Positions 28,005 to 59,282 of a DNA stretch of 64,000 nt are shown here, one piece after another. The notes beneath the pieces were generated by a model. The model saw only the letters and a program-made list of their open reading frames with translations, was not told the origin of the DNA and searched no databases. Each line of letters opens with the position of its first letter. Position 1 is the stretch's first letter. Where the stretch lies: assembly GCA_965248265.1 (NCBI GenBank), contig CBDFJF010000002.1, positions 3,520,001 through 3,584,000 on the forward strand, written 5' to 3'. Both the position numbers and the translations under genes were made by a program. Origin of the DNA: Candidatus Latescibacterota bacterium (GTDB lineage Bacteria; Latescibacterota; UBA2968; UBA8231).

Positions 28005-28073
28005 CCTTCCTTACCTTTTTGCAACCCATCATCACCTTGACTGTGACGGGCTCTCCCTTAATTTAGCAAGCGT

Positions 28074-28107
28074 GCCGAAGTGGCGAAATTGCCGAAGTGG
28101 CGAAATT
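28074..28107 (+). repeat. 17-bp perfect tandem duplication of the tRNA-Leu 5' end
   Basis: GCCGAAGTGGCGAAATT at 28074-28090 and 28091-28107. Confidence 0.9.
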
Positions 28108-28178
28108 GGTAGACGCGCTACGTTCAGGGCGTAGTGGGGTTAATCCCCGTGTGGGTTCGAGTCCCTCCTTCGGCACCA
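28091..28178 (+). tRNA. tRNA-Leu(CAG)
   Basis: GCCGAAG/CTTCGGC acceptor stem, anticodon arm CTACG-TTCAGGG-CGTAG, long variable arm, GGTTCGAGTCC, encoded CCA. Confidence 0.95.
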
Positions 28179-28207: not shown

Positions 28208-28240
28208 AGCCGGGCCATCTGTTCGATGGCCCGGCTTTTT
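28208..28240 (+). terminator. intrinsic terminator after tRNA-Leu
   Basis: AGCCGGGCCATC-tgttc-GATGGCCCGGCT-TTTT. Confidence 0.85.
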
Positions 28241-28306: not shown

Positions 28307-30373
28307 CTATTCGTCGGGATGCTCGCCGTTACCATCCTGGTGCTGGCGGTCTTCCCAGAAGCGCTCCATTTCCTCCTCCATGGCCCGGATCTCGTCTTCC
28401 AGCTGTTCCAGCTGAGCTTGGAAACGGCGTTCGATGGAGCGGCGTGCCCGATCGGAGGCAGGGCCGTGAGGTACGCCCATGTCGTCTATCGCGCGAAAAG
28501 CCTCATGCATCTGTTCCTCCAGGCGCATGCGGCGCTCCTCCAACTCCTGTCTGCGTGCCATGTGGGCTTTCTCAAACTGGTAGCCCTCCTCGTCGAAATG
28601 CTCTCCGTCTTCTGCACGTCGACGCTCCTGCTCGTCCTCCCACTCGTTCATGTGGCCTTCCATCTCTGAGCGCTGACGGTTGGCCCAATACCGCTGCATC
28701 TCGTCATCCAGAGCCCGGAACTCCGCTTCCAGTTCCTCCATCTGCTCCTCATGCCGACGCTCAATCGAGCGCTGCTCCACATCGTACATCGGCCCTGGCA
28801 GGTCTTTCTCATTCAGCGCCTTGAACGCCTCGTGCAACTGCTCCTCCAGACGCATGCGACGTTCATCCAGCTGTTGCCGGCGTGCCATCTGGGCTCTCTC
28901 GAACTCGTAGGCTTCCTCGTCGAAATGCTCACCCTCTTCTTGACGACGGCGATCCTGCTCCTGCTCTCATTCATTATGGTGCCGTTCTTGCTCCGAGCGC
29001 TGCCTGTTGGTCCAGTATTCGTGGGTCTCGTCATCCAGAGCCCGATACTCAGCCTTTAATGCTTCCATCTGTGTTTCGTGCCGGCGCTCGATTGCCTCAC
29101 GCTCGCGATCGTGCTGCGGGCCCGGGATGTCCCTGTCGTCCAGGGCTCGAAAGGCCTCGTGAATCTCCTCCTCGAGGCGCATGCGGCGCTCATCCAGCTG
29201 CTGCCGGCGTGCCATCTGTGCCTTTTCGAACTCATAGGCCTGCTCGTCGAAGTGCTCCCCCTCTTCCTCGCGCCGCCGTTGTTGATCGGCCTCCCATTCT
29301 TGCTGGTGACGCTCCTGCTCCATACGCTGCCGGTTGGCCCAATACTGCTGCATCTCATCATCCAAGGCCCGGAACTGGGCCTGCAGCTCGTCCATCTGAG
29401 CTTCGTGCCGGCGCTCGATCTCCGTGCGCTCGGCGTCAAATTCATCTCCTAAAAGCCTCTGTTCTGCCAGCTCCTTGAACGCTTCGTTCAGCTGCTCTTC
29501 AAACTGAATCCGGCGCCCCTCCAACTCCTGCCGACGGGCCATCTGAGCCCTCTCGAACTCGTGGGCTTCTTCGTCGAAATACTCACCCTCGTCCTCGCGA
29601 CGGCGCTCCTGCTCAGCGTCCCACTCCTGCGCCTGACGATCCATATCGGAGCGCTGCCTGTCAGTCCAATAATGCTGATTGGCTTCATCGAGCTCGCGGA
29701 ACTGTGCCTCCAGTTCGTCACGCTGTTCGCGCTCACGACGTTGCAGCTCCTCCCGTTCCTGCTCATATCGCTCGTCGAGGGCGCGATAGGCCTCATGGAT
29801 CTCCTCATCCAGCGCTGTCCGGCGCTCCTCCAGTTCACGACGGCGCTCCATTTGACCCTTCTCGAACTCATAGGCCTGTTCGTCAAAATGCTCACCTTCT
29901 TCCTGACGGCGACGTTCCTGCTCCTCCTCCCACTCACGCATGTGGCGTTCCGTCTCTGTGCGCTGACGGTTGAGCCAATACTGGTGAGCCTCTTCATCCA
30001 GAGCGTGAAGGGCTGCCTCTATCTCCTCCATTTGCAGATGGTGTTGGCGCTCGATGGCCTGGCTCTCCTGGTCATATATCATGCCAGGGAGCCCTCTCCG
30101 ATCCAAAGCCCGAAAGGCTTCGTGGATCTGATCTTCAAGGAGTACTCGCCGTTCTTCCAGTTCCTGACGCCGAGCCATCTGTGATTTCTCAAATTCGTAG
30201 GCCGCCTCGTCGAAATGCTCTCCTTCCTCTGCACGTCGCCTGTCCTGGTCGCTTTCCCACTCCTGTCTCTCACGGTCTCTGTCCATCGATTGGGCGGACA
30301 GATCCGTCGGCACGGTCATCTGTGTCAGGCTCAGACCGAGCAAGGTTAGCAGTAGTTTCATTCTATAGGTCAT
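28307..30373 (-). CDS. secreted Glu/Arg-rich helical protein of six ~109-aa repeats; in-frame TGA at 28967-28969 (readthrough, nonsense allele or error)
   Basis: ORF-track entries 28967..30457 and 28307..28888 share a frame; AAGGAG SD before ATG 30373; signal peptide MTYRMKLLLTLLGLSLTQMTVPTDLSA; repeat EW..EQ.RRR.EEGEHFDE.AYEFE.AQMARRQ.L. Confidence 0.8.
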
Positions 30374-30811
30374 TTCCGGTCTCCTTTGACGCATTTGGAA
30401 GTACATACCCTCGACGCTAACAGCGGAAGCTGCGCAATATCCATGTGAACGAGGCAACTGGCGCGAGACCTAAGTAATGATTCTGTGCCGGGAATGACAA
30501 TGATTTTCATCACAAAAATATGCAAAAAGCGCATTCTCTGCGGTTTTTTCGACCTGGGAATCATTGGCCGGTGACCAGCTCTCGGAGAATAACGTCTATT
30601 TGTAGACAGAACAGCACTCTTTCTTGAACTTTATGCAACAACTTTTAAGTGACTTAAAAACCGGGACTTACATCTTTTTTTTGAGTGCCATATATTGGTT
30701 CATTACCTTTTCTCGAGCTTTGCCTCAAGTTGAGGAGCATGAAGCCGATAACATTAGATATGAAATAGTATTAACTCTTCACATGTCATAAAGACAAGGA
30801 GGTCTTTATCC

Positions 30812-31066
30812 ATGGCAGGGAGAAAAACGAAGCTGGTTGGCATCGAGGAAGCTGCCAAGCTATTCGGTAAATCCATCCACCAGATGCGCGAGTACAAGTC
30901 AAAAGGACTACTCAAGGTAGCAGATTGTCACGGCAATAAGGATCTATATGACATGGCTGAAGTGATCCTGCTCAAACATCTGATCCACGAAATGCGTGTG
31001 CAGGAGGGGCTTTCGCTCTCGCAGATATCACGTCGACTCGACCAAATGATGGGACGGGCGGCATAG
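30812..31066 (+). CDS. stand-alone MerR-like HTH protein
   Basis: AAGGAGG SD; IEEAAKLFGKS..QMREY..KGLL...LY...EGLSLSQI. Confidence 0.75.
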   Translation: MAGRKTKLVGIEEAAKLFGKSIHQMREYKSKGLLKVADCHGNKDLYDMAEVILLKHLIHEMRVQEGLSLSQISRRLDQMMGRAA

Positions 31067-31202: not shown

Positions 31203-32363
31203 TCAAGATCTGCGTGGTGGCGGTCCGGCTCCGGGAGGCGTTACCGAGCGGTCGCAGGTCTCGTTCACGATACCCATCAACTCGTCGAACAGCTCCCCCA
31301 CCCAGCTTGGAAGCTGACCTACGCGGTCCGAATGCAATGCGGCAGCGAACTGGCGTCTGGCCCGGTTGAGTTCCCCGGCTCCCGGCGGCCCTCCAAGCCC
31401 GAGAAGCTGAGCTGCAGCCAGATTCCTGAGTGGGGTAAGATCGATTCTCAACGGGGTAGCACTCCCGGCCCCACGGCGGGCTTCGGCCGCGGCCGCCCGG
31501 TGTGCCATTTCCCGTAGGCGCTCGTCCAACTTTACGTACTCGGACCGAAGTCGCTGCAGCTCGTTGATCGAATCCCTGCTTTCGCGTTCGACCTTGATTC
31601 GCCTGCTGCGCTCCTGCCTGAGTTTCTCGCCGTTTTCTCGCTCCTCTCGCAGCTGCCGGCGCATCTGCTTCGACTCAGATTCGAAGCTCTTCGCTCGTTG
31701 ATGAGCCCGCGTCGCGCGGTCTTCGGCGACCTCCAGTTCTTCACCTAGGGTCTTGAGGCTCTCCTCCTGACGCCGGGCAACATCCCTCAACCTTTCCAAC
31801 TCCGCTGACGAAGGTGTCCCCTCATCAATAGGATCAATTCCGTCGAGTGCCTGTAGAAATCGATCGAGAAGGTGCTCTCCGCTGCTGATCTCACCATCCG
31901 TGGGAGCCATCAGTGAGCAATCGCGCAACCAGGACCACGTGTTCTTGTATCGCTCGCGCATGATATTCAGCAACGCGGAGCGGCGTGCTGGAGGAGTGCC
32001 AGAATCGAGCAGCCGACGATAGATGCCCATCTTGTCGACGGGACCGCCTATGGTGATCACTTCCGGCGCAATGCCCTCCAGCCGTTGCCACATGCCCCTG
32101 ATGCGTTCGCAGGCGGCGATTTCGAAAGCCAGTGAGCGTTCCCCCAAGCCGTAAACGGAACCGTCATCCAACAGAATTTTGCCGAGCCACTGGTTCAATT
32201 CATCCAGGCCAGTGCCTGAGCGCAGGCGCTTCCCATAGTCCAGGTACCGGCGCAACGATCTCGGCGATTGCGATTCCGTCAGCTCGCGAAGGTCCTGCAG
32301 ATCCTCGTCCGTCAATCGGGGACGGCCTTCTGTGCGCAGGTCTGGATTTTTCCGAGCATCCAA
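31203..32363 (-). CDS. coiled-coil protein with C-terminal J-domain-like module (HSD in place of HPD)
   Basis: ~110-aa coiled coil, then LLGL...ELNRARRQFAAALHSDRV...MGIVNET; start uncertain (TTG 32363). Confidence 0.6.
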   Translation of the reverse strand: MDARKNPDLRTEGRPRLTDEDLQDLRELTESQSPRSLRRYLDYGKRLRSGTGLDELNQWLGKILLDDGSVYGLGERSLAFEIAACERIRGMWQRLEGIAPEVITIGGPVDKMGIYRRLLDSGTPPARRSALLNIMRERYKNTWSWLRDCSLMAPTDGEISSGEHLLDRFLQALDGIDPIDEGTPSSAELERLRDVARRQEESLKTLGEELEVAEDRATRAHQRAKSFESESKQMRRQLREERENGEKLRQERSRRIKVERESRDSINELQRLRSEYVKLDERLREMAHRAAAAEARRGAGSATPLRIDLTPLRNLAAAQLLGLGGPPGAGELNRARRQFAAALHSDRVGQLPSWVGELFDELMGIVNETCDRSVTPPGAGPPPRRS

Positions 32364-32377
32364 GGCGACATCCCGGG

Positions 32378-33870
32378 TCAGGTAGAATCCGCAGTGACAG
32401 ACGTGGACCCGCGTTGCGACTGGGCGGTTCGTGAGTACTCCGGATAGTAGGCTCGAATGAAATCGCGAGCGGTACGGCCACCGATGAGATCGTGACCGTG
32501 CCGCCGGCACCATACATTGAATCTGGCCAGTAACTGCTCCTCGTCCACTTCGATACCAGCGCGCCTGGCGTAGGAAAGCATCATATGCTCGTACTCCGAC
32601 TTCCTCGGCAAATCCAGAAACACCTTGAGGCCGAATCGGTCATCCACTGCCCTAGCTGAATCGAGGCGTTCAAACTGTTGCGAGTCGTAAGAAGCCACCC
32701 CTGAGTCGGACGCTGTCACGCCGTCGACCTGTAAAGGGGGGGCGCTGTGGGATGTCTTCCCTCCCTATCGACGAGGTCTTTGAAGTTGGACGTTGCATAG
32801 AAGATCAGGTTGTCGGGAACACACTCCAGACCACCATCGAGAGCGGTTCCGATCTGTCTAAAGCTGGCATCATGGGGATCCCAGCTCAAGTTGTCGAGTA
32901 CGGCAATGAAATGCTGAGGTAGTCTCCGGACTACCTCGAAGAGCTCATCGAAGCGACCGTAGCAATCTTCCCCCAGTTCCAGACCACGCAAGCCGCGGGC
33001 GTAGTATTTAGTTATCAGACCCCTGATTAGGGACGATTTACCGCATCCGCGCGGACCGAAAATCAGCGTGTTGTGGGCGCGAAAGCCATCGAGAAAGTTC
33101 AGCGTGTTCTCTTCAACGATGTCGATGCGGCTGCTATTCCCTTCGAGCCACTTCGAGTCAAACGCAGCGAAATCGGCGATCGGCCGTAGCATCAGTCCGG
33201 CACCGGTTGCTTTGACGCGCAGCGCTGGATTCCCCTGGAGTCTTCCCGTTCCATGGCTGAATGCCAGATCAGCCAATCGGGAAGTGAGTGACGACCACTG
33301 ATCGGACCGCGAGAACAACGCGATGAGTTCATCGTGGACGACCTCAAGATCCCATGCCGTTCGATCTTCTGCTGTATTCGCCACAGTTCCGTTATCGATA
33401 TCCTGCAACGAAGATGCGCCCAGGGTCTCGAGCCAACCGCCGATGTCACATCGTGCCAGTACCATCAGGCTGTTGAGATCCCGCTCCATCGCGCGCACCG
33501 TTGCTGCGGTCATCTCACCATGCGGACTTGAGGCCGCAAGCACCATGAACGGGTGCTCACTGATGAACAGGCGTCTGAGAATGTACTCCTGCAGATGCCC
33601 AACACCCCGGTGATTGCATGCTATCAGAGGTTGCTCAGCCAGGACCTGCAACAGGAGGTCTTGATATAGGCGCTCGGGAACAGCAGGAACGGATCCATGA
33701 TTCGCTGAGATCAGCTCACTCTGCTGCAGGATGGACTCGAACAGCTTGTCGAGGTTGGAACGAACCGTGGGTGAAAGGACGTCACAGAACGAGGAGAGCA
33801 ATGTCAGGTGGTTGCGAGCGCAATCTGCCTGTTGCTGAATTGATGCTGCGGAGGCTGGAGCGCCTGCCAC
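32378..33870 (-). pseudogene. DUF815-family AAA+ ATPase split by a -1 frameshift at a C7 run
   Basis: 5' ORF has ENTLNF, GPRGCGKSS, LDGGLE, YATSN; 3' ORF has DDRFGL and GGRTARDF; one extra C in the run at 32736-32742 joins them. Confidence 0.72.
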
Positions 33871-33874
33871 CAGG

Positions 33875-35761
33875 TCAGCCCTTGGTTTCTATCCAGGCGC
33901 CCTCGCGATTCCTCTCGATGTGCCTCTTCTGCCCCCTCTTCTTGGCGGGCACCAGTTCCTGGGTCTCCGGGTCGCGCGAAACGATGACAAACAGCGTTGG
34001 ATCATCCGGATCCGGCATGATCTTCTGAGGTATTCGCCGCGTGCTGCCAGCCACCCGCATTTCGACACGGCCGATCTGAACACCCTTCTGGATTTCTTCT
34101 TCTGACAGCTCCATCTCGTCGCCATCACCAGACGCTGGCTTTTCTGTCGCCGCCGCGGTTTCCTTCTTCTCGCGAGCTTCCTTGGTCTGAGCCTGCCGCT
34201 CATCGCGGATGCGATCCTCAATCTGGTCCATCATCACTGTACTGCGTTGCTTCAGTTCGGCGGCCTCGTCGGAGGTCATGTCCGGAAACAATCGCCTCAT
34301 GCGCCGGTTGAGAAAATTCTCTGCCTGGTGACGGGCCTCCTTCATATCCGAAGTGCCCTGATAGAATTCCTCGACGGTTCTGGCAATGCGTAGTAGACGC
34401 AATTCTTTGCGAAAGGGTGTCTTCTTGGCTACGTGGTCGACGAGGGAGATCATACAGCGCATGTCGGCCGCCGGCCTCACTCTCTTCAGTTGATCTGAAG
34501 AGTTGAGGCGTTCTGACATGCCATCAGAATCGAGTTTGTCCAGATCCTCGATGAAGGTCTCGTCGATGATCATGTTGCCAATACGTTCGAGGCCGCGCCC
34601 CATGATTGAGTTGTACGGATGTAGACGCACCGAGATCATGCGAAGCTCCTGGTCTTTGCGCTCCATGATGTCGATACAGCGATCCAACATCTCGACATCT
34701 TCCATAAGCGCCTTCAGCGTCGCGCTCAGATCCGTATCGCCCTGGGCGATCACGGCCTGCTTGTGCTCGATCAGGAAGGTCAGCGCGTCATGGTAGCTGG
34801 GATCAATCTTCTGCATTGATTCAAAGACCTGGAGATAGCGCACGGAATCAGCGACCGCTTCCCTGACCTTGCGTTCCAGCTTGTCCCGGGTCTCGCCCGT
34901 GAGAATGCTGTTGCGGATGCTGGTGGCCTCTTTTTCGTCGATCTCCCCCTTCTTGACGCGCTCATCGATCTCTCGCAATTGCTTTATCTGATCGGCTTCA
35001 GTCTCGGTCACGACACCCTGATCCACGAGGGAGTCCAGATTCTTCGGGACCTTCTCCAGCTCCCGCTCTTCCAGTTCGGAGCGTCGCTTTTCCTGCTGCT
35101 GTACGCGCTGCTTGGCCTCGGCCCCATCCACCTCACCGCTGGCGACCGCCTCATCTACGGCTTCGTCTTCCGGGCTCTTGGCAGCCGGGGTGGGCGCCTC
35201 TTGTGGGGGCTCCGGGATGAGTGGCTCAGAGACAACGGGTTGTATTTCGGCCTGCTGTTCGGGGGCAGCTGGTTTTTCCTCTCGCGGCCCGCTGATCTGA
35301 TCGACCATCTGCTTGACGCCGGAAAGCACGTCGATGTTGTCAGTCGACAGATTCACCTCATCGAGGAAATCCCGTACCTCCTCCCGTTGACTGAACCGAC
35401 GCAACGATTGCGCTCCCTTTTCCTGGATCTTGGCCAGATCCCAGTTCAACCGTTTCACCCCTTCCTCGAAGGCGCTGTTGATCTTGTTCTGAAAGCCCTT
35501 GGCCAGGTAGGTATCGGGACGGGACCGGTTCACGGCCTCCACCATGTGGCGTATCTGTAAACGTGTGGTGTCAGATACCTCTGATGCGGTCACATCGGAG
35601 TAAACTTGCTCGGCGGCCTCGACGAAATCGCCATTGGTCAACAATGGCTCGCCGTCTTTCAGCCTGTCCGTTATGCGCGCCCAGATCTCCTTGCACACAT
35701 TCTGCGGCAAAGGTCCGGCAGCGTCGGACGCGGATAGATTTTGATTTGCGGTTTTTGACAT
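33875..35761 (-). CDS. large helical hypothetical protein with three SHOCT-like motifs
   Basis: Long ORF with host-like codon use; VASGEVDGAEA, VDQGVVTETEA, VKKGEIDEKEA; start ATG 35761 (alternative 35791). Confidence 0.7.
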   Translation of the reverse strand: MSKTANQNLSASDAAGPLPQNVCKEIWARITDRLKDGEPLLTNGDFVEAAEQVYSDVTASEVSDTTRLQIRHMVEAVNRSRPDTYLAKGFQNKINSAFEEGVKRLNWDLAKIQEKGAQSLRRFSQREEVRDFLDEVNLSTDNIDVLSGVKQMVDQISGPREEKPAAPEQQAEIQPVVSEPLIPEPPQEAPTPAAKSPEDEAVDEAVASGEVDGAEAKQRVQQQEKRRSELEERELEKVPKNLDSLVDQGVVTETEADQIKQLREIDERVKKGEIDEKEATSIRNSILTGETRDKLERKVREAVADSVRYLQVFESMQKIDPSYHDALTFLIEHKQAVIAQGDTDLSATLKALMEDVEMLDRCIDIMERKDQELRMISVRLHPYNSIMGRGLERIGNMIIDETFIEDLDKLDSDGMSERLNSSDQLKRVRPAADMRCMISLVDHVAKKTPFRKELRLLRIARTVEEFYQGTSDMKEARHQAENFLNRRMRRLFPDMTSDEAAELKQRSTVMMDQIEDRIRDERQAQTKEAREKKETAAATEKPASGDGDEMELSEEEIQKGVQIGRVEMRVAGSTRRIPQKIMPDPDDPTLFVIVSRDPETQELVPAKKRGQKRHIERNREGAWIETKG

Positions 35762-35864
35762 CAGCGGTAGATGGAAAACAGTATCCCTCAAAAAAGCCCT
35801 GAAATTCCTAGATTGTCAAGTGAAGCGCTATGCCTTAGGTGGTTGTCCTGGAAAGAGTTCTCTA

Positions 35865-40375: not shown

Positions 40376-41035
40376 ATGCCGCCGCAGATATTCCGCCGCA
40401 GCATCAATTGGTTTGCCAATGTAACCATCATTGGCGCGGTCGTTGTCCCCGGACTGCTGCTGACCATTCTCCTCAACATCAATCGGCTGGACTATGTCAG
40501 TCACGTGGGCATGCCCAAGGATCAACCTGTGCCCTTCAGCCATAAACACCACGTAACTGGCATGGGTATCGACTGCCGCTATTGCCACACGACGGTGGAG
40601 GAAACAGCGTTTGCCGGTATCCCACCGACGGAGACCTGTATGACCTGTCACTCCCAAATTTGGACCGAAGCATCTATGCTCGAGCCGGTGAGGGCGAGCT
40701 TCCGAGATAACACCTCCTTGCAGTGGACGCGCATCCACGACTTGCCGGATTTTGTCTACTTCAAGCACGACATACACATCAACAAGGGCATCGGGTGCGA
40801 GACCTGTCACGGTCGTGTAGACCGCATGCCCCTAGCCATGAAAGCGCAGACACTGAACATGGAGTGGTGTCTGGATTGTCATCGGGCCCCTGAACTGTTC
40901 ATTCGGCCCCGGGAGGAGGTCTTCAACATGGCCTGGACCTATCCCCTCGATCAAGAGGCGGCGGGCATGAAACTGGTCCAGCAGTACGGCGTTCAGACGT
41001 CCCAGCTCACCGATTGCTCAGTGTGCCATCTATGA
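40376..41035 (+). CDS. actA: alternative complex III pentaheme cytochrome c
   Basis: TM anchor, QPVPFSHKHH, five CxxCH motifs. Confidence 0.93.
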   Translation: MPPQIFRRSINWFANVTIIGAVVVPGLLLTILLNINRLDYVSHVGMPKDQPVPFSHKHHVTGMGIDCRYCHTTVEETAFAGIPPTETCMTCHSQIWTEASMLEPVRASFRDNTSLQWTRIHDLPDFVYFKHDIHINKGIGCETCHGRVDRMPLAMKAQTLNMEWCLDCHRAPELFIRPREEVFNMAWTYPLDQEAAGMKLVQQYGVQTSQLTDCSVCHL

Positions 41036-44000
41036 CCGAAGCATCCGTTACCCGCAAACAGCTGGACATGAACGATCTGCGCGCTCGCCTCGCTGAGGGT
41101 GGTGGCCGGGACTACTGGCGCAGCCTGGAGGAGTTGGCTGAAACCGAGGAATTCGAGGAATTGCTCCACAGGGAATTCCCGGAGAGCGCCTCCGAGTGGA
41201 CCGACGGGGTGAGTCGGCGCAACTTTCTGAGGCTCATGGGTGCGTCGCTGGCATTTGGCGGCCTCACGAACTGTACCATCCAACCTGAGGAGAAGATCGT
41301 TCCCTGGGTAAGGGCACCGGAGAACCTGATTCCGGGCAGGCCACTGTTCTACGCCACCGCGATGCCTGTGGGCGGCATCGGCACGGGCATTCTGGTGGAG
41401 AGCCACATGGGGCGGCCCACGAAGATTGAGGGCAACCCCGGGCATCCCTCCAGTCTGGGCGGCACCGACGCCATCACCCAGGCCTCCATCCTCGACTTGT
41501 ACGATCCCGACCGCGCCACCGCGGTCAAGAACGCGGGTCGGATAGGCACCTGGAGCAGCTTCCTGCAGAGTCTCGACAAGGAGCTCTCTTTCCAGCGGCT
41601 GAAGAATGGAGCAGGACTGCGAATCCTCACCGAAACAGTAGGCTCACCCACGCTCGGACAGCAGCTGGGCTTCGTCCTGGAAGAGTTCCCAGAGGCTCAC
41701 TGGCATCAGTTCGAGCCTGCCAACCGGGATAATGTCCGAAACGGTTCAACGCTGGCTTTCGGTGAGCCCGTCAATACCTATTTCGATATCGCCAAGGCAG
41801 ATGTCATTCTCTCATTAGACGCCGACTTCCTCTACAGCGGCCCCGGCAGTGTGCGCTATGCCCGCGATTTTGCATCACGGCGGCGACCTCGCGATGGAAA
41901 GGGGGATGAGTTCAATCGGCTTTACGTCGCCGAGACATCCCCTTCCGCGACGGGGAGTATGGCCGATCACCGTGTCGCTCTGGACAGCGGCGCCATCGAG
42001 GCCTTCGCCTTGGCTTTGGCTGGGCAATTGGGAGTTAAATTCCGCGCCGAAGGAGAGATCCCGCCTTTCGACGACCGCACTGGATGGCTTGCGGCACTGG
42101 CGCGGGATCTGCGCAAGGCAGGCAGCTCCGGCCTCGTCATCGCCGGCGACTACCAGGCTCCCGTCCTGCACGCTCTGGCCCATGCCATCAACGACTCCCT
42201 CGGCAGCGTTGGTACGACAGTCTATTATACGGATCCGCTGGAAGTGGAACCCGTGGACGAATCCGAATCCATCCGGGAACTGGTGGCGTCCATGAAGGCC
42301 GATGAGGTGGAAGTCCTCATCATCGTGGGTGGCAATCCCGTCTTCAACGCACCGGCTGACCTCGACTTTGCCGAAGCCCTGGGCCATGTGGGGTTCCGGG
42401 CCCAGTTGAGTCCTTTCGAGGACGAGACCTCAGAGTTGTGCCACTGGCACGTGCCTGAGTCTCACTACCTGGAATCGTGGAGTGACATCCGCGCGTATGA
42501 CAGCACTGCCGCGATAGTGCAGCCGCTGATCCAGCCTCTCTACAACAGCAAGTCCGCCCACGAGTTGGTCGGGGCCATGATCGGCCAGGCCGGGTCTGGG
42601 ATCAGAGACCTTCTCAGGGAGTTCTGGCGACAAGAGACCTTCGCCGCGGATTTCGAGGAGTTCTGGGTTCGGGCTCTCCACGATGGCGTGCTCGCCGATA
42701 TGGCCTTCTACCCACGCCGGGTGAGCTTGCGTACTCCAATCAGAATCCCGACGGGATTCGCCCAACCCGCCGGTGAAGAGCAGATGGAACTCGCCCTGCG
42801 TCCCGATCCCCTGATATGGGATGGCCGCTTCGTCAACAACGGCTGGCTCCAGGAGACCCCCAAGCCAGTGACCAAGTTGACCTGGGATAACGCCGCTCTG
42901 GTGAGCCCGGAGACGGCCCAGAGACTGGGTCTCAAGAACGAGCAAGTGGTCGAACTGAGTCACGCTGGAAGATCCGTGAAAGCGCCTGTGTGGATCGTCC
43001 CGGGTCAGGCTCGTGAAGTCGTAACAGTTCAGCTCGGATACGGTCGCCGCCAGTCCGGTCGGGTGGGCCAAGGCATCGGATTCGATGCCAATGCGGTGCG
43101 GACGGCCGATAACATGTGGCGGGCAACAGGTCTGAAGGTTGTCATGTCCTTCGACCGGCATGCGCTCGCCTGCACCCAGGACCACCAGCTCATGGAAGAC
43201 CGACACCTGGTCAGGCACGCCGACATGGAGCACTATCGGCATCATCCCGAATTCGCTCAGCACGAGGTCCATGTGCCCCCTGCCTCTCTCACGCTCTTCA
43301 ACAATGGCGAATTCCAGTCCTCCACAGGCAACTCCTGGGGCATGGCCATCGATCTCAACGCCTGCATCGGTTGCAATGCCTGTGCCGTCGCCTGCCAGGC
43401 GGAGAACAACATTCCCATAGTGGGCAAGGAGGAAGTTCTCAACGGCCGAGAGATGCCGTGGATCCGCATTGATCGGTATTACGCGGGAGATCTGGACGAT
43501 CCCGAGATTCTCCACCAGCCTGTTCCCTGCCAGCAATGCGAAAACGCTCCTTGTGAGCTGGTCTGTCCGGTCGGGGCCACTTTGCACAGCGAAGAGGGCT
43601 TGAACGACATGGTGTACAATCGGTGCGTAGGAACCCGCTATTGTTCCAACAACTGTCCGTACAAGGTGAGACGGTTCAATTACCTCCAGTACGCGGATCG
43701 GGATACTCCCAGTCTCAAGCTCCAGCGCAACCCGGACGTGACCGTTCGGGCCCGGGGGGTCATGGAGAAATGCACGTACTGCACCCAGCGCATCAACGCC
43801 GCCCGCATCGTCGCAAAGAAGCGTGGCGGCCCCATACAGGATGGGGAAATCCAGACCGCCTGCCAGCAGGCGTGTCCTACTGAGGCCATTGTCTTCGGGA
43901 ACATCCAGGATGAGGACAGTCGAGTGTCCAAATGGAAGGGCTCGTCCCTGAACTACAGCATCCTCGCCGATCTGAACACCAGACCGCGCACGACCTACCT

Positions 44001-44040
44001 GGCCAGAGTCACCAACCCCAACCCCGAGATCAAGGGATAG
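41032..44040 (+). CDS. actB: alternative complex III molybdopterin-oxidoreductase-like plus Fe-S subunit
   Basis: YWRSLEEL, TAT motif SRRNFL, GRPTKIEGNP, CIGCNAC, CQQCENAPC, CVGTRYCSNNCPY, MEKCTYC. Confidence 0.95.
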   Translation: MTEASVTRKQLDMNDLRARLAEGGGRDYWRSLEELAETEEFEELLHREFPESASEWTDGVSRRNFLRLMGASLAFGGLTNCTIQPEEKIVPWVRAPENLIPGRPLFYATAMPVGGIGTGILVESHMGRPTKIEGNPGHPSSLGGTDAITQASILDLYDPDRATAVKNAGRIGTWSSFLQSLDKELSFQRLKNGAGLRILTETVGSPTLGQQLGFVLEEFPEAHWHQFEPANRDNVRNGSTLAFGEPVNTYFDIAKADVILSLDADFLYSGPGSVRYARDFASRRRPRDGKGDEFNRLYVAETSPSATGSMADHRVALDSGAIEAFALALAGQLGVKFRAEGEIPPFDDRTGWLAALARDLRKAGSSGLVIAGDYQAPVLHALAHAINDSLGSVGTTVYYTDPLEVEPVDESESIRELVASMKADEVEVLIIVGGNPVFNAPADLDFAEALGHVGFRAQLSPFEDETSELCHWHVPESHYLESWSDIRAYDSTAAIVQPLIQPLYNSKSAHELVGAMIGQAGSGIRDLLREFWRQETFAADFEEFWVRALHDGVLADMAFYPRRVSLRTPIRIPTGFAQPAGEEQMELALRPDPLIWDGRFVNNGWLQETPKPVTKLTWDNAALVSPETAQRLGLKNEQVVELSHAGRSVKAPVWIVPGQAREVVTVQLGYGRRQSGRVGQGIGFDANAVRTADNMWRATGLKVVMSFDRHALACTQDHQLMEDRHLVRHADMEHYRHHPEFAQHEVHVPPASLTLFNNGEFQSSTGNSWGMAIDLNACIGCNACAVACQAENNIPIVGKEEVLNGREMPWIRIDRYYAGDLDDPEILHQPVPCQQCENAPCELVCPVGATLHSEEGLNDMVYNRCVGTRYCSNNCPYKVRRFNYLQYADRDTPSLKLQRNPDVTVRARGVMEKCTYCTQRINAARIVAKKRGGPIQDGEIQTACQQACPTEAIVFGNIQDEDSRVSKWKGSSLNYSILADLNTRPRTTYLARVTNPNPEIKG

Positions 44041-44057
44041 GCCCTCACAGCCGCACC

Positions 44058-45437
44058 ATGTCAGAGCAGGCAACGCGACAGCAATACACACCGCCTCCTC
44101 CCGAATTGGGTCCGGGTCAGACGTCCTACACGTCGATAACGGAGAAGGTAAGCTCTTTCGTTCTGACTCCCCACACACCGTGGCAGTGGTTCTTCGTCGT
44201 ATTCGTGGGTCTGATGGGGGTGGGACTCCTGCAGTTGGCCATCGGCTACTTGTTGTACGAGGGAATCGGCATCTGGGGTCTCAACGTCCCCGTCGGCTGG
44301 GGTTTCGCCATCGTCCACTTCGTCTGGTGGATAGGAATCGGCCACGCAGGCACGCTCATTTCCGCCATCCTTCTGCTCTTTCGCCAGAAGTGGCGCACCT
44401 CCATCAACCGGTCGGCCGAAGCCATGACCATCTTCGCCGTCATGTGCGCCGGCATGTTCCCCCTGATCCATACCGGGCGCCCCTGGTTGGCCATATACTG
44501 GCTATTCCCCTACCCGAACTCCATGGATGTATGGCCCCAGTTCCGATCTCCCCTGATCTGGGATGTCTTTGCGGTGAGCACTTACTTCACCGTATCGCTC
44601 GTCTTCTGGTATATGGGGATGGTTCCCGATCTTGCCACTTTTCGCGATCGAGCCAAGTCTCCGATCGTCAAGCGCCTGTACGGGATGTTCGCCATGGGCT
44701 GGCGGGGATCGGCCATCCACTGGGAGCGCTACGAGATGGCGTCCCTCATGTTGGCCGGCCTGGCCACCCCGTTGGTCCTGTCCGTGCACAGCGTCATAAG
44801 TCTGGACTTCGCCGTCTCGATCATACCCGGGTGGCACACCACGATTTTTCCTCCCTATTTCGTAGCTGGCGCCATCTACGCAGGATTCGCCATGGTGCTC
44901 ATTCTGGTGATTCCCCTGAGGCGGCTGTACGGATTGCAAGATTTCGTCACCATACGGCACCTGGAGAACATGGGCAAGGTGATGCTCACCGCCGGGCTTA
45001 TCGTCGCATACGGCTACTTCATGGAACAGTTTATAGCCTGGTATAGTGCCAGCGTTTATGAATCGTTCATGATGCACAATCGGATGTTCGGCCCGTATGG
45101 AAGCTACTACTGGGCCCTCATTCTCTGTAACATCCTCATTCCGCAGGCCCTGTGGTCCAAGAGGGTGCGACGGAACACCACCTGGCTCTTCTTTATCTCC
45201 GTGGTCATTAGCGTGGGCATGTGGCTGGAGCGATTCGTCATCGTCATTACCAGTCTGCACGCAGACTACATGCCCTCTTCCTGGGACATGTTCTACCCCA
45301 CCTTCTGGGATTGGGCCACCTACGCGGGTACCATAGGCTTCTTCCTCCTCGCGTTCTTTCTCTTCGTGCGAGCACTGCCATTGATCGCCGCCCACGAAAT
45401 CCGAACCCTTCTCCCCTTCGGGAAAAAGGTGAAATAG
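44058..45437 (+). CDS. actC: alternative complex III NrfD-family membrane subunit
   Basis: FVWWIGIGHAGTLISA, HTGRPW, FRSPLIWDVFAVSTY, PGWHTTIFPPYF. Confidence 0.95.
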   Translation: MSEQATRQQYTPPPPELGPGQTSYTSITEKVSSFVLTPHTPWQWFFVVFVGLMGVGLLQLAIGYLLYEGIGIWGLNVPVGWGFAIVHFVWWIGIGHAGTLISAILLLFRQKWRTSINRSAEAMTIFAVMCAGMFPLIHTGRPWLAIYWLFPYPNSMDVWPQFRSPLIWDVFAVSTYFTVSLVFWYMGMVPDLATFRDRAKSPIVKRLYGMFAMGWRGSAIHWERYEMASLMLAGLATPLVLSVHSVISLDFAVSIIPGWHTTIFPPYFVAGAIYAGFAMVLILVIPLRRLYGLQDFVTIRHLENMGKVMLTAGLIVAYGYFMEQFIAWYSASVYESFMMHNRMFGPYGSYYWALILCNILIPQALWSKRVRRNTTWLFFISVVISVGMWLERFVIVITSLHADYMPSSWDMFYPTFWDWATYAGTIGFFLLAFFLFVRALPLIAAHEIRTLLPFGKKVK

Positions 45438-45464
45438 CGGGGCGTCGAACCTGCTTCGATACTT

Positions 45465-46007
45465 ATGAACCAGACTGGATCTGACACCTACGGCCTCATG
45501 GCCGAGTTCGAGACGCCCGAGGATCTGTTGGAGGCTGCCAGGCGCACCTACTCGGAAGGATACCGAACCATGGACGCCTACGCCCCTTTGCCCATCCACG
45601 GCCTGGCCGCTGCCATCGGATTTCCAAGAACCAATCTGCCCATCTTTACTTTCATCTGCGGTGCCGTGGGTGCGATCGCCGGGTACGCCATGCAGTACTG
45701 GATTCACGTCATCGACTTTCCCTTGAATATCGGTGGAAGACCGTTGCACAGTGGTCCCATGTTCATCCCCGTGACCTTCGAGTTGACCATACTGTTTGCC
45801 GCCTTGGGCACTTTCATAGGTCTGTGGATTCGCAACGGACTGCCCATGCCTTACCACCCGGTTTTTAATGTGGAAGGCTTCGAGCGCGCCAGTCAGGACC
45901 GTTTCTTCCTCTGCATCGAATCCGGGGATCCCCTCTTTAATGCCGATCGCACTGGCTCTTTCCTGCGGGGCTTGAATCCGGTAGAGGTATCGACCGTTGA
46001 CTGGTAA
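45465..46007 (+). CDS. actD: alternative complex III subunit D (DUF3341)
   Basis: GLMAEFETP, DAYAPLPIHGL, NIGGRP, PVTFELTILFA. Confidence 0.92.
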   Translation: MNQTGSDTYGLMAEFETPEDLLEAARRTYSEGYRTMDAYAPLPIHGLAAAIGFPRTNLPIFTFICGAVGAIAGYAMQYWIHVIDFPLNIGGRPLHSGPMFIPVTFELTILFAALGTFIGLWIRNGLPMPYHPVFNVEGFERASQDRFFLCIESGDPLFNADRTGSFLRGLNPVEVSTVDW

Positions 46008-46008
46008 G

Positions 46009-46596
46009 ATGCCGCGATGGCGCCATAGAGCGGCCCTGCCTACAGCACTCGCCCTTGCAGGGGCGCTGCTCCTGGGTGGTTGCGAACTCCGGCAGGCAAT
46101 GTATGACCAGCCGAAGTACGAGAGTCTCGAGGCCTCCGACCTGTTCGAGGACGGACTTTCTGCCCGCCAACCTATGGAGGGAACGGTGGCCCGAGGACAG
46201 CTCCGCCTTGACACTCACCTGTATGAGGGTAAGGTGAACGGCGAGTTGGCAACCACCATGCCTCTGGCGCTCACAGACGAACTCCCCATCCGAGGCAGAC
46301 AGCGCTACGACATATTCTGTTCCCCTTGCCATGACCGCACGGGCACGGGCAACGGAATGATTGTAAAGCGCGGGCTCAAGCAACCTCCCTCATACCACAT
46401 CGACCGTCTTAGAGAGGTCCCTATCGGATACTTCTTCGATGTCATCACCAACGGCTTTGGTGCGATGTACGGTTATGCGGATAAAATTCCCGTCAAAGAC
46501 CGGTGGGCTATCGCCGCCTACATGCGCGCTCTCCAGTTCAGCCAGCGCGCCCGGTTCGACGAACTGCCCGCAGAGGATCAGAGGCAGCTACAATGA
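46009..46596 (+). CDS. actE: alternative complex III monoheme cytochrome c lipoprotein
   Basis: Lipobox LLLGG-C, MYDQPK, GTVARG, CSPCH. Confidence 0.9.
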   Translation: MPRWRHRAALPTALALAGALLLGGCELRQAMYDQPKYESLEASDLFEDGLSARQPMEGTVARGQLRLDTHLYEGKVNGELATTMPLALTDELPIRGRQRYDIFCSPCHDRTGTGNGMIVKRGLKQPPSYHIDRLREVPIGYFFDVITNGFGAMYGYADKIPVKDRWAIAAYMRALQFSQRARFDELPAEDQRQLQ

Positions 46597-47801
46597 ACCA
46601 GGAGATTATTCGACAGTCGGAGGCCCTGAAGCCGCAGTTCGACTCCTATAGGAAGAAAGCCCTCGTCTGCGGCTTGGTGGCGGCCGCCTTCGCGATCTTG
46701 GGGTTATTCCTCGACCACGACCAGTTTTTTCGATCTTACCTGCTGGCTTTCGTCTACTGGGTGAGCCTGTCCCTGGGCAGTCTCCTGCTCCTCATGACTC
46801 ACCACCTGGCGGGAGGAAGGTGGGGATTCGCTATTCGTCGTCTCCTGGAAGGTGGTACGCGGACTCTGCTACTCATGTTCGTGCTGGGCATCCCCGTGCT
46901 GCTGGGTATTCACGAGCTCTACGAGTGGAGTCACGAAGATGTAGTGGCCGGCGACGAGATCCTCCAGATGAAGGCCTCGTTTCTGAATCCGACTTTCTTC
47001 GTGATCCGCTACGTCATCTATTTTCTGATATGGGGCGCTATGGCTGCCCTCCTCAACAGGTGGACAGCTGAGCAGGACTCCACGACGGAGACCTCCCCCA
47101 CGCGGAGAATGCAGATCCTGAGCGGGCCGGGAGTAGTCGTGTTCGTCCTCGTCGCCACCTTCGCCGCCACCGACTGGATCATGTCCCTGGAACCTCACTG
47201 GTTTTCCACCATCTACGCGGCTATTTACATCATCGGACAGATCCTGCTGACGTTTGCCTTTATGACCCTGGTGGCCGTCCGACTGTCGCGATACCAGCCT
47301 TTGAGTGCGCTGCTGACCAACGACCGTTTGAGAGATCTGGGTACCTTCATGCTCGCCTTTGTCATGCTCTGGGCTTACACCTCCTTCTCCCAGTTTCTCA
47401 TCATCTGGTCCGGCAACCTTCCCGAGGAAATCACTTGGTACTATACCCGTCTCACGGGCGGCTGGCAGCACGTGGGGTATCTGTTGGTGTTTTTTCATTT
47501 CGGCCTGCCTTTTGTTCTGCTAGTCTCCAGCCGACTCAAGGCACGAATCCCCATTCTGGTCTCCATTGCAGCCGGCCTAATGGCCATGCGGCTGCTGGAC
47601 CTTTTCTGGATCACTGCCCCTGCTTTCGATAAGACGGGCTTCACCATCCACTGGCTGGACGTGGTGCTGCCCATCGCCATGGGCGGCCTCTGGTTGTACG
47701 TCTTTTACGGGCAGCTGAGGAAGCGATCCCTCGTCCCCCTGAACGATCCGCGCTTCGATTTCTCCGCTCTTGCCGCCGCCAGCGAGGAAGCCCATGGCTG
47801 A
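46593..47801 (+). CDS. actF: alternative complex III membrane subunit F
   Basis: LYEWSH, DWIMSLEPHWFST, FSQFLIIWSGNLPEE. Confidence 0.92.
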   Translation: MNQEIIRQSEALKPQFDSYRKKALVCGLVAAAFAILGLFLDHDQFFRSYLLAFVYWVSLSLGSLLLLMTHHLAGGRWGFAIRRLLEGGTRTLLLMFVLGIPVLLGIHELYEWSHEDVVAGDEILQMKASFLNPTFFVIRYVIYFLIWGAMAALLNRWTAEQDSTTETSPTRRMQILSGPGVVVFVLVATFAATDWIMSLEPHWFSTIYAAIYIIGQILLTFAFMTLVAVRLSRYQPLSALLTNDRLRDLGTFMLAFVMLWAYTSFSQFLIIWSGNLPEEITWYYTRLTGGWQHVGYLLVFFHFGLPFVLLVSSRLKARIPILVSIAAGLMAMRLLDLFWITAPAFDKTGFTIHWLDVVLPIAMGGLWLYVFYGQLRKRSLVPLNDPRFDFSALAAASEEAHG

Positions 47802-48210
47802 GCCGATTGCACCTGAGAGTGAGAAGGACGCTCGTGGATACGAGCAGTCGGATGCATCGGCCGGCCCGATGGCAAAGGTGGCCATCGCCCTGGCGGTTTC
47901 TCTGGTGTGTATCTTCGTCGGGATCCTGGTTCTTTTCAAAGTGTTCAGCTATGCGCAACCTCGGCTGTTCGATCGGGAGCCTCACCCGCTGGCCCAGACC
48001 AGGCAACTGGCCTCCGGGACCCGCCTGCAGCTTGATCCTCCGCAGCTGAAGATCGACATGCTGGCCAACGAGAACGAGGTGTTGACTACCCACGCCTGGG
48101 TAGACCGCGAACAGGGGCTTGTGCGCATTCCCATAGATCGAGCCATCTCCATTCTGGCGAAATCGGGCCGACTGCCGCAGAAAACGGACAGCACGGAGGT
48201 CGAGCAGTAG
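47794..48210 (+). CDS. actG: alternative complex III subunit G-like membrane protein
   Basis: YEQSDA, single TM, RLQ, WVD...VRIPIDRAI; position after actF. Confidence 0.72.
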   Translation: MAEPIAPESEKDARGYEQSDASAGPMAKVAIALAVSLVCIFVGILVLFKVFSYAQPRLFDREPHPLAQTRQLASGTRLQLDPPQLKIDMLANENEVLTTHAWVDREQGLVRIPIDRAISILAKSGRLPQKTDSTEVEQ

Positions 48211-48212
48211 CG

Positions 48213-49103
48213 ATGATCGCCGTTGACTCCGCCCGATTCAATCTCCGTGCACGAAGTGCGGACGCCTGTCGCAAGACCGGGAGGCGCGGCGCTGTGAGTG
48301 CGGTCGCCGTCGTCGCCATCCAGACGTGTGTGGCCGGTGCACAGCCCCTCGACTCGCAGTTGCTGGACCAGATCGGGCTGGATCAGAATCTGGAGACGCA
48401 AATACCTCTCGACCTCACCTTTTCCGACGACAAGGGCCGCACGGTCGCCATCGGAGACCTCCTGGGTGACAGGCCGGCTCTGCTGACCTTGGTGTATTAC
48501 GAGTGCCCCATGCTCTGCACCCAGATCCTCAATGGACTGACGCGCAGTTTGCGCGTGCTCTCCTTCGATGTGGGGAAAGAGTTCGATGTTATCACCGTCA
48601 GCATTGACCCGGATGAGACTTCGAGTCTAGCCGCGGCGAAGAAGAAGGAGTACGTGAAGCGCTACGGCCGGACCAGCGCCGATCGTGGGTGGCACTTTCT
48701 CACTGGACGCCAGGATCAGATCGACCGACTGGCACAGGCCGTGGGATTCCGTTATCAATACGACCCGGAAACCGATCTGTACCTTCACGCCAGCGGCATT
48801 ATGCTGCTGACCCAAGAGGGAAAGCTGGCCCGTTACTTCTATGGAGTCGAATACGCTCCCAAGGACGTGCGTCTTGGACTCATCGAGGCATCGCAGGGCA
48901 GGATCGGCTCTCCGGTGGACCAGTTGCTCTTGTTGTGCTATCAGTACGACCCGTCAACCGGGAAGTACGGTCTGGTAATAATGAATTCCGTGCGCATCGC
49001 CGGCGGGCTGACGGTAGTGACAATAGTGTCTTTCATTGTCCTCATGCTGCGCCGGGAGCGCCGCGCGAAACTGAGGCACCGGACCGCCGAGCTCCCTGCA
49101 TAG
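48213..49103 (+). CDS. SCO family copper chaperone
   Basis: YYECPMLC, VSIDP, HASG, LCYQYDPSTGKY. Confidence 0.9.
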   Translation: MIAVDSARFNLRARSADACRKTGRRGAVSAVAVVAIQTCVAGAQPLDSQLLDQIGLDQNLETQIPLDLTFSDDKGRTVAIGDLLGDRPALLTLVYYECPMLCTQILNGLTRSLRVLSFDVGKEFDVITVSIDPDETSSLAAAKKKEYVKRYGRTSADRGWHFLTGRQDQIDRLAQAVGFRYQYDPETDLYLHASGIMLLTQEGKLARYFYGVEYAPKDVRLGLIEASQGRIGSPVDQLLLLCYQYDPSTGKYGLVIMNSVRIAGGLTVVTIVSFIVLMLRRERRAKLRHRTAELPA

Positions 49104-49156
49104 GTAATCCGGTGTGCCATCGAGGTGTGACGAATCGTGAGATTAGCTGACTGAAG

Positions 49157-50092
49157 ATGTCCGACCACTTTCCACTATTTCCCGAGCAAGCCTCTACCTT
49201 TGCACTACAGGTGGATGGCCTCTATTTTTTATTGCTCTCCTTGGGTGCGTTCTTCGCGATAGGTGTGGTCTTCTTCATCATCCTGTTTGCGGCCAAATAC
49301 CGACGGCGATCCGAGGACGAGCGCCCGAAACCGATCGAAGGCTCCATCCCACTCGAATTGGCCTGGAGTATCATTCCTCTAGTGCTCTCCGTCGTGGTTT
49401 TTACCCTCGGTGCGGGAGTCTTTTTCAGGATGTACAGTGCCCCGGCGAATGCGATTGATATCAACGTCGTTGGCAAGCAATGGATGTGGAAGATCCAGCA
49501 CCCTCAGGGCAAGCGCGAGATCAATGAGTTGCACGTTCCGGTAAACCAGCCTGTACGGCTTACGCTGGCCTCAGAGGACGTGATCCACGCCTTTTTCGTC
49601 CCCGCCTTCCGGGTCAAGAAAGACGTGGTTCCCGGGCGATATAACACCATGTGGTTCGAGGCCACGAAGGTGGGAGAGTACCACCTCTTCTGCGCCGAAT
49701 ACTGCGGCACTCAGCATTCCGGTATGACCGGGCGCATCGTCGTCATGGAACAGGAGGAGTTTCAGGCCTGGCTAAGCGGCGGAGCTACGGGCGAAACCAT
49801 GGTGGAAGCGGGAGCCCGCCAGTTCCAGCAACTGGGTTGTGAGACGTGTCACAAGGAGTCCGGCCAGGGAAGGGGTCCGAAATTGATGGGTCTGTTTGGG
49901 ACTCCGGTACAAATCACTACGGGAGAAACAGTGCTCGCTGACAAGGATTATCTGCGCACCTCGATCCTGGACCCCGGCAGCCAAATCGTTGGAGGGTACA
50001 AGCCTATCATGCCCACCTTCCAGGGACAGATCAGCGAGGAGACGCTGATGCAGATTATCAGCTACATCCAATCTTTGAGTGATTCCGAGTAA
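49157..50092 (+). CDS. coxB: cytochrome c oxidase subunit II with fused cytochrome c (caa3 type)
   Basis: CuA ligands DVIH and CAEYCGTQHSGM; C-terminal CETCH...MP. Confidence 0.95.
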   Translation: MSDHFPLFPEQASTFALQVDGLYFLLLSLGAFFAIGVVFFIILFAAKYRRRSEDERPKPIEGSIPLELAWSIIPLVLSVVVFTLGAGVFFRMYSAPANAIDINVVGKQWMWKIQHPQGKREINELHVPVNQPVRLTLASEDVIHAFFVPAFRVKKDVVPGRYNTMWFEATKVGEYHLFCAEYCGTQHSGMTGRIVVMEQEEFQAWLSGGATGETMVEAGARQFQQLGCETCHKESGQGRGPKLMGLFGTPVQITTGETVLADKDYLRTSILDPGSQIVGGYKPIMPTFQGQISEETLMQIISYIQSLSDSE

Positions 50093-50116
50093 GGTCCGGG
50101 TGGAAAGCAGATAGAG

Positions 50117-57342: not shown

Positions 57343-57359
57343 GGATTTCGTCTCCGCCC

Positions 57360-59087: not shown

Positions 59088-59282
59088 GCATTTGCCTTGC
59101 GTACGGCAGGGAGCTAATTGGCGGGTCAAAGTTGTTCGAATTCTCCTGCCTTCTTGTGGCCTCGCTTGAAACTGGCCAACCTGTTGAGCAAGGTCCACTA
59201 CATGCAGATGGCAGCTGTCGACCGACAGAGCTGGTGATCGTCAGCTGGATACTCTCAGTCCAGCCGCTGACCCAGATACGCT

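Follow-up and report, generated by a model that had tools for sequence, protein, structure and literature searches.

Introduction

Spectrin repeats, which build the rods of spectrin, alpha-actinin and dystrophin, are units of about 106 amino acids (aa) with a conserved Trp in helix A, and the Glu/Arg-rich helices of the ER/K single alpha-helix (SAH) type are thought to be rigid spacers. In bacteria, the cytokinesis regulator EzrA is built from serial antiparallel triple-helical bundles of about 100 aa that are arranged head to tail; according to passages of the 2014 report its authors termed it the sole bacterial protein of serial spectrin-like repeats, and its handedness is reversed relative to spectrin (PMC4243239). 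Periscope proteins, as characterized in passages of PMC9704523, are surface proteins whose stalks vary in repeat number and which are defined by highly identical repeats that allow their length to change by recombination, three-helix bundles being among their stalk folds. Here, we analyzed a gene from Candidatus Latescibacterota bacterium (GenBank assembly GCA_965248265.1) that lies in a stretch of 64,000 nucleotides of contig CBDFJF010000002.1, positions 3,520,001 to 3,584,000 (called the window for simplicity; all coordinates below are those of the window). The gene occupies 28307..30373 on the minus strand and specifies six tandem repeats, mostly of 109 aa, behind a putative signal peptide, with an in-frame TGA in repeat 5. 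At roughly even odds (about 0.5) we read its product as a Sec-exported, very acidic helical-repeat rod that acts as a stalk or spacer.

Six old repeats behind a putative signal peptide

In what we take to be its ancestral form, the reading frame at 28307..30373 (minus strand, as are all features of the gene) comprises 688 codons followed by a TAG stop (28307-28309) and contains the single internal TGA, which is treated below. The ATG start codon (30373-30371) is preceded by an AGGAG ribosome-binding site (30381..30385, 7 nt 5' of the ATG) that was read from the sequence, and the position of the start Met is matched by the homologues P0002, P0005, P0012 and P0018. Residues 1-27 (30293..30373) were assigned to a signal peptide by eye from sequence features, with predicted cleavage after LSA: the leader (MTYRMKLLLTLLGLSLTQMTVPTDLSA, then QS) opens with an n-region containing R/K, continues with LLLTLLGLSL as its hydrophobic stretch and closes with the small residues 'SAQ'. 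It looks like a signal peptide for Sec export; a placement of the protein in the periplasm would go a step beyond this.

The repeats were scored against a repeat profile. Repeat 1 (aa 38-146, 109 aa; 29936..30262) reached 168 bits and repeat 2 (aa 147-249, 103 aa; 29627..29935) 131 bits, the latter being 6-7 aa shorter and devoid of the Pro/Gly loop that joins helices B and C. Repeats 3 (aa 250-358, 109 aa; 29300..29626) and 4 (aa 359-467, 109 aa; 28973..29299) scored 157 and 171 bits, respectively. Repeat 5 (aa 468-576, 109 aa; 28646..28972), which lies 3' of the internal TGA, is the top-scoring repeat with 175 bits. Repeat 6 (aa 577-688, 112 aa; 28310..28645; 156 bits) is a terminal variant ending in the acidic tail HQDGNGEHPDE; terminal repeats of this type were also found in P0014, P0019 and P0025, and the acidic tail in P0019 and P0025. 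At 28480-29420, Tandem Repeats Finder detected 2.9 copies of a 327-bp period with a score of 859. Identities among the six repeats were 61-71% for DNA and 46-72% for protein, and the dN/dS ratio was 0.04-0.17 in nine out of 15 pairs, dS being saturated in the remaining six. Judged by the saturated synonymous sites, the dN/dS values and these identities, the repeats are old and under purifying selection. A second copy of the repeat gene was not found within the 64-kb window.

The mature protein is composed of 23.4% Glu, 15.8% Arg and 10.3% Gln, has 1.2% Lys and contains no Cys. Its net charge is -93 over 659 aa, or about -14 per 100 aa, compared with a median of -1.8 per 100 residues among the 49 other open reading frames (ORFs) of the window.

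No described family accommodated the repeats. When the two pieces of the gene, i.e. the 468-aa product that ends at the TGA and the 219-aa piece that follows it, were scanned against Pfam and NCBIfam, nothing exceeded the cut-offs; in Pfam the 468-aa product had no match, and the sole match of the 219-aa piece, SR_plectin_7 (PF21097; E-value (E) 0.11), reached 13.3 bits where the cut-off is 27. When 29 family sequences were scanned against Pfam, no family occurred in more than four members (51 families matched any sequence). Sequence-profile searches of the PDB returned nothing below E 0.02, the best matches (E 0.02 and 0.052) being designed or coiled-coil chains, and a search of the ESM Atlas gave no usable match. 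The repeat family was not found described in the literature on bacterial or periplasmic spectrin-like repeats and on cohesin, dockerin or cellulosomes in Latescibacteria.

An earlier note on this DNA had proposed a signal peptide, with which the leader agrees, and six tandem repeats with a 327-bp period and a shorter repeat 2, which are borne out by Tandem Repeats Finder and the profile scores, and its description of a Cys-free protein rich in Glu, Arg and Gln agrees with the composition. Its view that no family could be assigned also holds, with nothing above cut-off in Pfam and NCBIfam, no PDB profile match below E 0.02 and no Foldseek match below E 1. For the gene at 28307..30373 itself the six repeats stood and the unbroken frame did not, the TGA at codon 469 having been overlooked.

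Predicted structure of the repeats

Two AlphaFold2 models were considered. The two-repeat model covers repeats 3-4 and was computed with a 29-row alignment; repeat 4 is contained in both models. The two-repeat model reached a mean predicted local distance difference test score (pLDDT) of 96.3 and a predicted template modelling score (pTM) of 0.81, and DSSP assigned helices to residues 2-38, 41-77, 83-147, 150-186 and 191-239, the 65-residue helix 83-147 bridging the two repeats. In the single-unit model (pLDDT 95.7, pTM 0.80) three helices of 36-38 residues are connected by turns of two and four residues. The predicted plan of a repeat is thus helix A, a tight conserved turn (EEGExFDE), helix B with hydrophobic residues at a spacing of 3-4, a short Pro/Gly loop, and helix C, which would run unbroken into the following repeat's helix A. 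This amounts to a predicted serial up-down-up topology, as in the spectrin and EzrA rods. Estimated from the helix lengths, such a rod would measure about 4 nm per repeat and about 25-30 nm for six repeats.

Distribution and domain architectures of the relatives

A word-indexed protein search retrieved 11 relatives, and a six-repeat profile run against 1.84 billion representative proteins retrieved 37 at E ≤ 0.001, 28 of them at E ≤ 1e-10. In GTDB, with one genome per species, 157 stretches matched two search patterns and seven loci were confirmed: five contigs from three metagenome-assembled genomes (MAGs) of Latescibacterota and two from Gemmatimonadetes MAGs. No match came from the window's own genome, and more distant members will have been missed because the patterns demanded GE[HY]FDE. 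One MAG carries at least four repeat paralogues, two of them adjacent. The adjacent pair, in a Latescibacterota MAG, lies at L006:2-2576 (plus strand), each paralogue combining a helical repeat with a C-terminal cohesin-like domain; further paralogues of this MAG are on its contigs L004 and L007. On this sequence evidence the family is rare and seems to lack a prior description, its members so far coming from Latescibacterota and Gemmatimonadetes MAGs and from metagenome proteins.

Family members with a genuine N-terminus share a similar leader that ends in 'AQ'. Among the 44 family sequences beginning with Met, a crude pattern flagged such leaders in 25; two of the unflagged sequences have a visible leader (P0023 and L003), and the other 17 open in repeat-region sequence with no leader and are apparent fragments. 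According to the profile, family members contain one to six repeat matches, and these counts are lower bounds because many of the sequences are fragments. Compared with P0001 and the window gene, P0012 has the beginning of repeat 1 joined to the end of repeat 2, so that repeat number changes between close relatives. A cohesin-like C-terminus is present in nine out of 52 family sequences: Pfam Cohesin (PF00963, cut-off 24.1) was exceeded by P0011 (25.9 bits) and P0017 (27.8 bits), and the remaining ones were assigned via a BLAST link to P0017. The Pfam scan of the window protein gave no Cohesin match. P0029 carries a type IX secretion system (T9SS) type A sorting domain above the cut-off of TIGR04183, and other C-terminal modules comprise one further domain common to three sequences and ankyrin repeats in one. 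Repeat-only relatives also exist and have a short acidic, often His/Asp-rich tail.

A stalk or spacer as the preferred reading

If the prediction is correct, helices running across the repeat borders would join the six repeats into one stiff rod, whose most likely role would be mechanical: a stalk or spacer with a fixed length, sited in the envelope or on the cell surface. The paralogues have the same array before cohesin-like, T9SS-sorted or other C-terminal domains, and the window protein is a repeat-only member. The rod is suggested by the confident helical model, the variable repeat number and the end domains of the paralogues, and the role as stalk or spacer is favored because relatives bear cohesin-like, T9SS-sorting or other end domains. 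The packing of the three helices in space, the rod shape, the location and the spacer function are what we infer from these observations.

Several points weigh against this assignment. The repeat gene is interrupted. Foldseek searches against the PDB returned 21 matches for the two-repeat model, all at E ≥ 2 and none significant, and 119 for the single unit, all at E ≥ 1.1, with no spectrin repeat among the single-unit matches listed (ranks 1-50). Foldseek is weak on all-helical folds, so that a topology similar to that of spectrin is still compatible with this null result. The window protein consists of signal peptide, repeats and an acidic tail of about 10 aa, with no anchor or end domain in the Pfam and NCBIfam scans. 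The invariant charged residues R9, R10, E13, D18, E19, E25, R31 and R32 exceed what a passive spacer needs and hint at a binding function. The neighboring genes are housekeeping genes with no functional link to the repeat gene, and the ORF lists of the homologous loci L001 and L002, which were not Pfam-scanned, revealed no shared neighborhood.

Conservation of the repeat and possible cation binding

Conservation was scored on 79 repeats of the more distant relatives. Near-invariance was seen for E1, E3, E5, R9, R10, E13, G14, F17, D18, E19, Y22, E25, M29, R31, R32, L35, R39, L53, L88, E91 and R99; position 2 is aromatic (W in 31 and F in 19 of 51 repeats) and W96 is present in 39 out of 54. 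The most conserved block of the family is the acidic turn E12/E13-G14-E15-x-F17-D18-E19. Its G-x-x-F-D element may cap a helix and staple the hairpin, and salt bridges between the helices may be what the invariant Arg/Glu pairs form. 

The same pattern can be read as that of a multivalent binder or buffer of cations or metals, in which the acidic helices, the EEGExFDE turn and the His and Met residues would give each repeat at least one site for Ca2+, Mg2+ or transition metals within the envelope. We regard this as unlikely and keep it as a rival because of the invariant acidic turn, the extreme negative charge, far below the window median, and the His/Asp-rich tails of relatives (His/Asp/Gly-rich linkers or tails occur e.g. 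in P0006, P0011 and P0003). A helix cap and hairpin staple would explain the G-x-x-F-D turn equally well. Among the best partial fold matches of the single unit are E2 domains of APP and APLP1, of which 3umi (APP E2) was deposited with zinc, at values that are not significant (TMq 0.48-0.55 over 76-83 columns, E ≥ 3). A small gene for a MerR-type helix-turn-helix (HTH) protein (30812-31066, plus strand) is divergent from the repeat gene across a 438-bp spacer and speaks for this rival; however, its product has 84 aa and no evident sensor domain, and no such gene stood out beside the homologues in the L001 and L002 ORF lists, which were not Pfam-scanned.

In the window protein the ExxH motifs of the earlier note are indeed present in most repeats (EGEH in five out of six, xxIH/xxLH in five out of six and ERRH/ERQH in four out of six). 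Beyond close relatives, however, H16 (GEHFDE) is His in 23 of 54 repeats and otherwise D or N, H47 in helix B is His in 26 of 53, and H74 (ERRH) is not among the three commonest residues at its position. The argument for multivalent metal binding through ExxH is thereby weakened, since these His residues are not conserved across the family, one of the two parts (dispersed and unconserved His) of what the earlier note had itself named as refuting its proposal. The absence of Cys and the lack of a match to any metal-binding family in the Pfam and NCBIfam scans argue in the same direction. A ferritin-like or di-iron ExxH four-helix bundle was rejected on the grounds of the unconserved His, the three helices per unit and the absence of a ferritin-like Pfam match. 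Where the earlier note had left the choice between a rod or spacer and a metal binder, the rod or spacer is now better supported, by the continuous helices of the AlphaFold2 model and by the one to six repeats and C-terminal domains of the relatives, and the metal binder has lost ground.

An in-frame TGA at an invariant Trp of repeat 5

The internal TGA (28967..28969) is codon 469 and stands at the invariant Trp of the 'EW' motif of repeat 5; the equivalent residue is Trp in all five other repeats and in P0001. Under translation table 11 the conceptual product has 468 aa and four repeats, and 219 further open codons follow in which neither another stop nor a frameshift occurs. As written, a TGG has changed to TGA in this copy, which would yield a four-repeat product unless the base is an error or UGA is occasionally read as Trp. 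TGA terminates 33 of the 49 other long ORFs of the window (both pieces of the repeat gene excluded) and is the commonest stop and a true one in this organism; an alternative genetic code was rejected for this reason. Selenocysteine was likewise rejected, the aligned residue being Trp in the five repeats and in P0001; a selenocysteine insertion sequence (SECIS) was not searched for.

P0001, the closest homologue, has 655 aa, is uninterrupted and colinear with the window gene, and is 78% identical to it with one gap. Its identity to the window protein is 77.9% 3' of the TGA versus 78.6% 5' of it, and repeat 5 is the best-conserved repeat (88% identical). A stem-loop of 12 pairs, nine of them G-C, is found at 28208..28236 between the final TAG and a convergent tRNA-Leu gene and looks like a bidirectional terminator; it is placed after the second stop (TAG), not after the TGA, and its T-run on the minus strand is weak. 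With the downstream part undecayed and TGA a normal stop, the TGA is therefore recent, an error of sequencing or assembly, or tolerated via read-through.

The interruption is not confined to this copy. P0002, the second-closest homologue, leaves the repeat frame after 'FRALDD', about 20 codons ahead of the window TGA and near the border of repeats 4 and 5, and its 30-residue tail matches the window DNA in another frame. In L002, a homologue from Latescibacterota, the frame is lost within a repeat, where a CCCC run follows 'FRA' (L002:6230-6260). Of the three closest relatives, two thus show an interruption close to the border of repeats 4 and 5, and disrupted copies in this small family total three. 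In the window, a DUF815-family ATPase gene (32378-33870, minus strand) is also split, with a break near 32716-32745 into ORFs of 384 aa and 113 aa in different frames that cover positions 5-158 and 170-246 of the 249 positions of the Pfam profile; a run of seven C residues is located about 20 nt upstream of the junction, and the break may be a homopolymer sequencing error or a real frameshift. The DUF815 lesion at the seven-C run and the L002 frameshift at CCCC make a sequencing error a live alternative for the TGA, which, unlike these two indels, is a substitution.

It follows that the gene might be a pseudogene, inactivated recently by the nonsense codon and either functionless or left with a truncated four-repeat product only. 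The loss of an otherwise invariant Trp to an ordinary stop and the disrupted P0002 and L002 would fit such a history. The 219 downstream codons, free of decay, and an assembly that carries another suspect lesion do not fit it, and on balance we think it improbable. In genome annotation, this copy is best marked as interrupted pending a check of the reads.

Self-assembly and chaperone-like roles as improbable alternatives

The repeats might also act between molecules, as a self-assembling extracellular or periplasmic fiber or matrix in which the long helices pair into coiled-coil or domain-swapped bundles. Helix A is poor in hydrophobic residues (mainly two Trp and a Met), so that packing within the chain may be weak, the composition resembles that of coiled coils, and the weak, sub-threshold Pfam matches are all to coiled-coil families (FlxA, Remorin_C, Mu Gam). 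Against this, AlphaFold2 places the monomer chain confidently (pTM 0.80-0.81) and the strong negative net charge argues against self-association without counter-ions; we hold a fiber to be very improbable. A hydrophilic envelope-stress or chaperone-like protein of the Spy/CpxP or hydrophilin type that shields other proteins would likewise be exported, highly charged, helical and Cys-free, and is the most remote of the alternatives, given that no LTXXQ/CpxP/Spy or LEA model matched at E ≤ 1 and that a repeat architecture with fused end domains in paralogues is unlike a free chaperone.

Genomic context

On one side the repeat gene is flanked by genes for tRNA-Leu(CAG), smpB, an IstB/DnaC-like ATPase, RNase PH and a sigma-70 factor, and on the other by the MerR-type HTH gene, a coiled-coil protein without assignment, the split DUF815 gene and cysS. 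At 28073-28108 (plus strand) the 17-bp sequence TGCCGAAGTGGCGAAAT is repeated perfectly in tandem; the second TGCCGAAGTGGCGAAAT copy is the 5' end of the tRNA-Leu(CAG) gene (28091-28178), and the repetition may stem from a duplication, from the assembly as an artefact, or from an old insertion that left a scar. Two large ORFs on the minus strand had no Pfam match, one of 436 aa (31203-32513), Arg/Glu-rich and with a coiled-coil-like second half, and one of 638 aa (33875-35791).

Farther along the window, a respiratory cluster (40376-52455, plus strand) encodes a multihaem cytochrome c7/c3-like protein, a 1008-aa 4Fe-4S protein, membrane ORFs without assignment, SCO1/SenC, and cytochrome oxidase subunits II (with fused cytochrome c), I and III, an arrangement that we take to resemble alternative complex III with a caa3 oxidase. 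Among the products of three adjacent genes at 53494-59198 (minus strand) are cytochrome c domains, a haem domain of the ethylbenzene-dehydrogenase-like kind and a protein of 612 aa that partially matches cytochrome bd oxidase subunit I.

Comparison with known systems

Spectrin resembles the window protein in overall plan. The window repeats are tandem units of 103-112 aa (mostly 109), they are predicted to form three long up-down-up helices of which the last continues into the next unit, and the family has conserved aromatic or Trp positions and a heptad-like hydrophobic spacing. The spectrin repeat model PF00435 was not matched in any Pfam scan at E ≤ 1, and no spectrin family is among the 25 of the 51 matched families that were listed. 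For the two-repeat model Foldseek gave E 4.2, a TM-score of 0.23-0.25 and a root-mean-square deviation (rmsd) of 16 Å against spectrin 1s35, and E 9.3 and TMt 0.32 against the utrophin repeat 3uul. Membership in the spectrin family is therefore not supported, there being no sequence match and no significant Foldseek match (TM 0.23-0.32, E > 4). The window protein also differs from spectrin in being, by its leader, exported rather than cytoskeletal, in its far higher charge and in its origin from uncultured bacterial phyla.

Unlike the window protein, with its signal peptide and repeats that are 46-72% identical to each other, EzrA is cytoplasmic and membrane-anchored, and its repeats, according to passages of the report, have no mutual sequence similarity (PMC4243239). 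EzrA was absent among the Foldseek matches listed for both models. With periscope proteins the window protein shares a single chain of tandem foldable repeats expected to form a rod, a repeat number that varies from one to six among relatives, and paralogues with an end domain that could be projected. It differs from them in that its repeats are not highly identical (61-71% at the DNA level, with saturated synonymous sites) and in that it has no recognizable surface anchor or projected domain.

Two further comparisons concern the helices themselves. The single unit found its best TMq values (about 0.55, E > 1) with the APLP1 E2 domain and LapD2, and the APP/APLP1 E2 domains and LapD2 share with it long antiparallel helices (TMq 0.48-0.55, rmsd 1.9-3.3 Å, 76-93 columns); these matches are partial and not significant (E 3-6), and they come from unrelated biology and show no sequence similarity. 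Glu/Arg-rich helices are common to the window protein and ER/K SAH domains. In the window protein, however, the turns (G14-x-x-F17-D18 and the Pro/Gly loop) and the hydrophobic positions are predicted to split the chain into packed helices, and Lys accounts for 1.2% of residues.

In its most far-reaching form, which we consider improbable, the stalk reading would make this protein the exported counterpart of the serial triple-helix rods of spectrin and EzrA and the first such rod outside the cytoplasm. The family would then provide length-adjustable stalks that hold cohesin-type or T9SS modules in Latescibacterota and Gemmatimonadota, and in the clade of the window the proportion of a four-repeat to a six-repeat form would depend on a leaky break close to the border of repeats 4 and 5, with UGA read as Trp by near-cognate tRNA-Trp in the window gene and a frameshift serving in P0002. 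If the structural prediction holds, serial spectrin-like three-helix rods would not be limited to eukaryotic cytoskeletons and EzrA and would also serve as exported stalks of the envelope or surface in little-known phyla. The repeat of about 109 aa appears to be a well-behaved module, confidently modelled and unusual in its salt-bridge-rich composition, and should be solvable and usable as a nanoscale spacer; the family gives a lead on the display of cohesin-like modules by Latescibacterota. Our best reading is that the window protein works like a stalk of the spectrin/EzrA or periscope type, while its sequence, its fold matches, the divergence of its repeats and the lack of an anchor or end domain do not support membership in those families.

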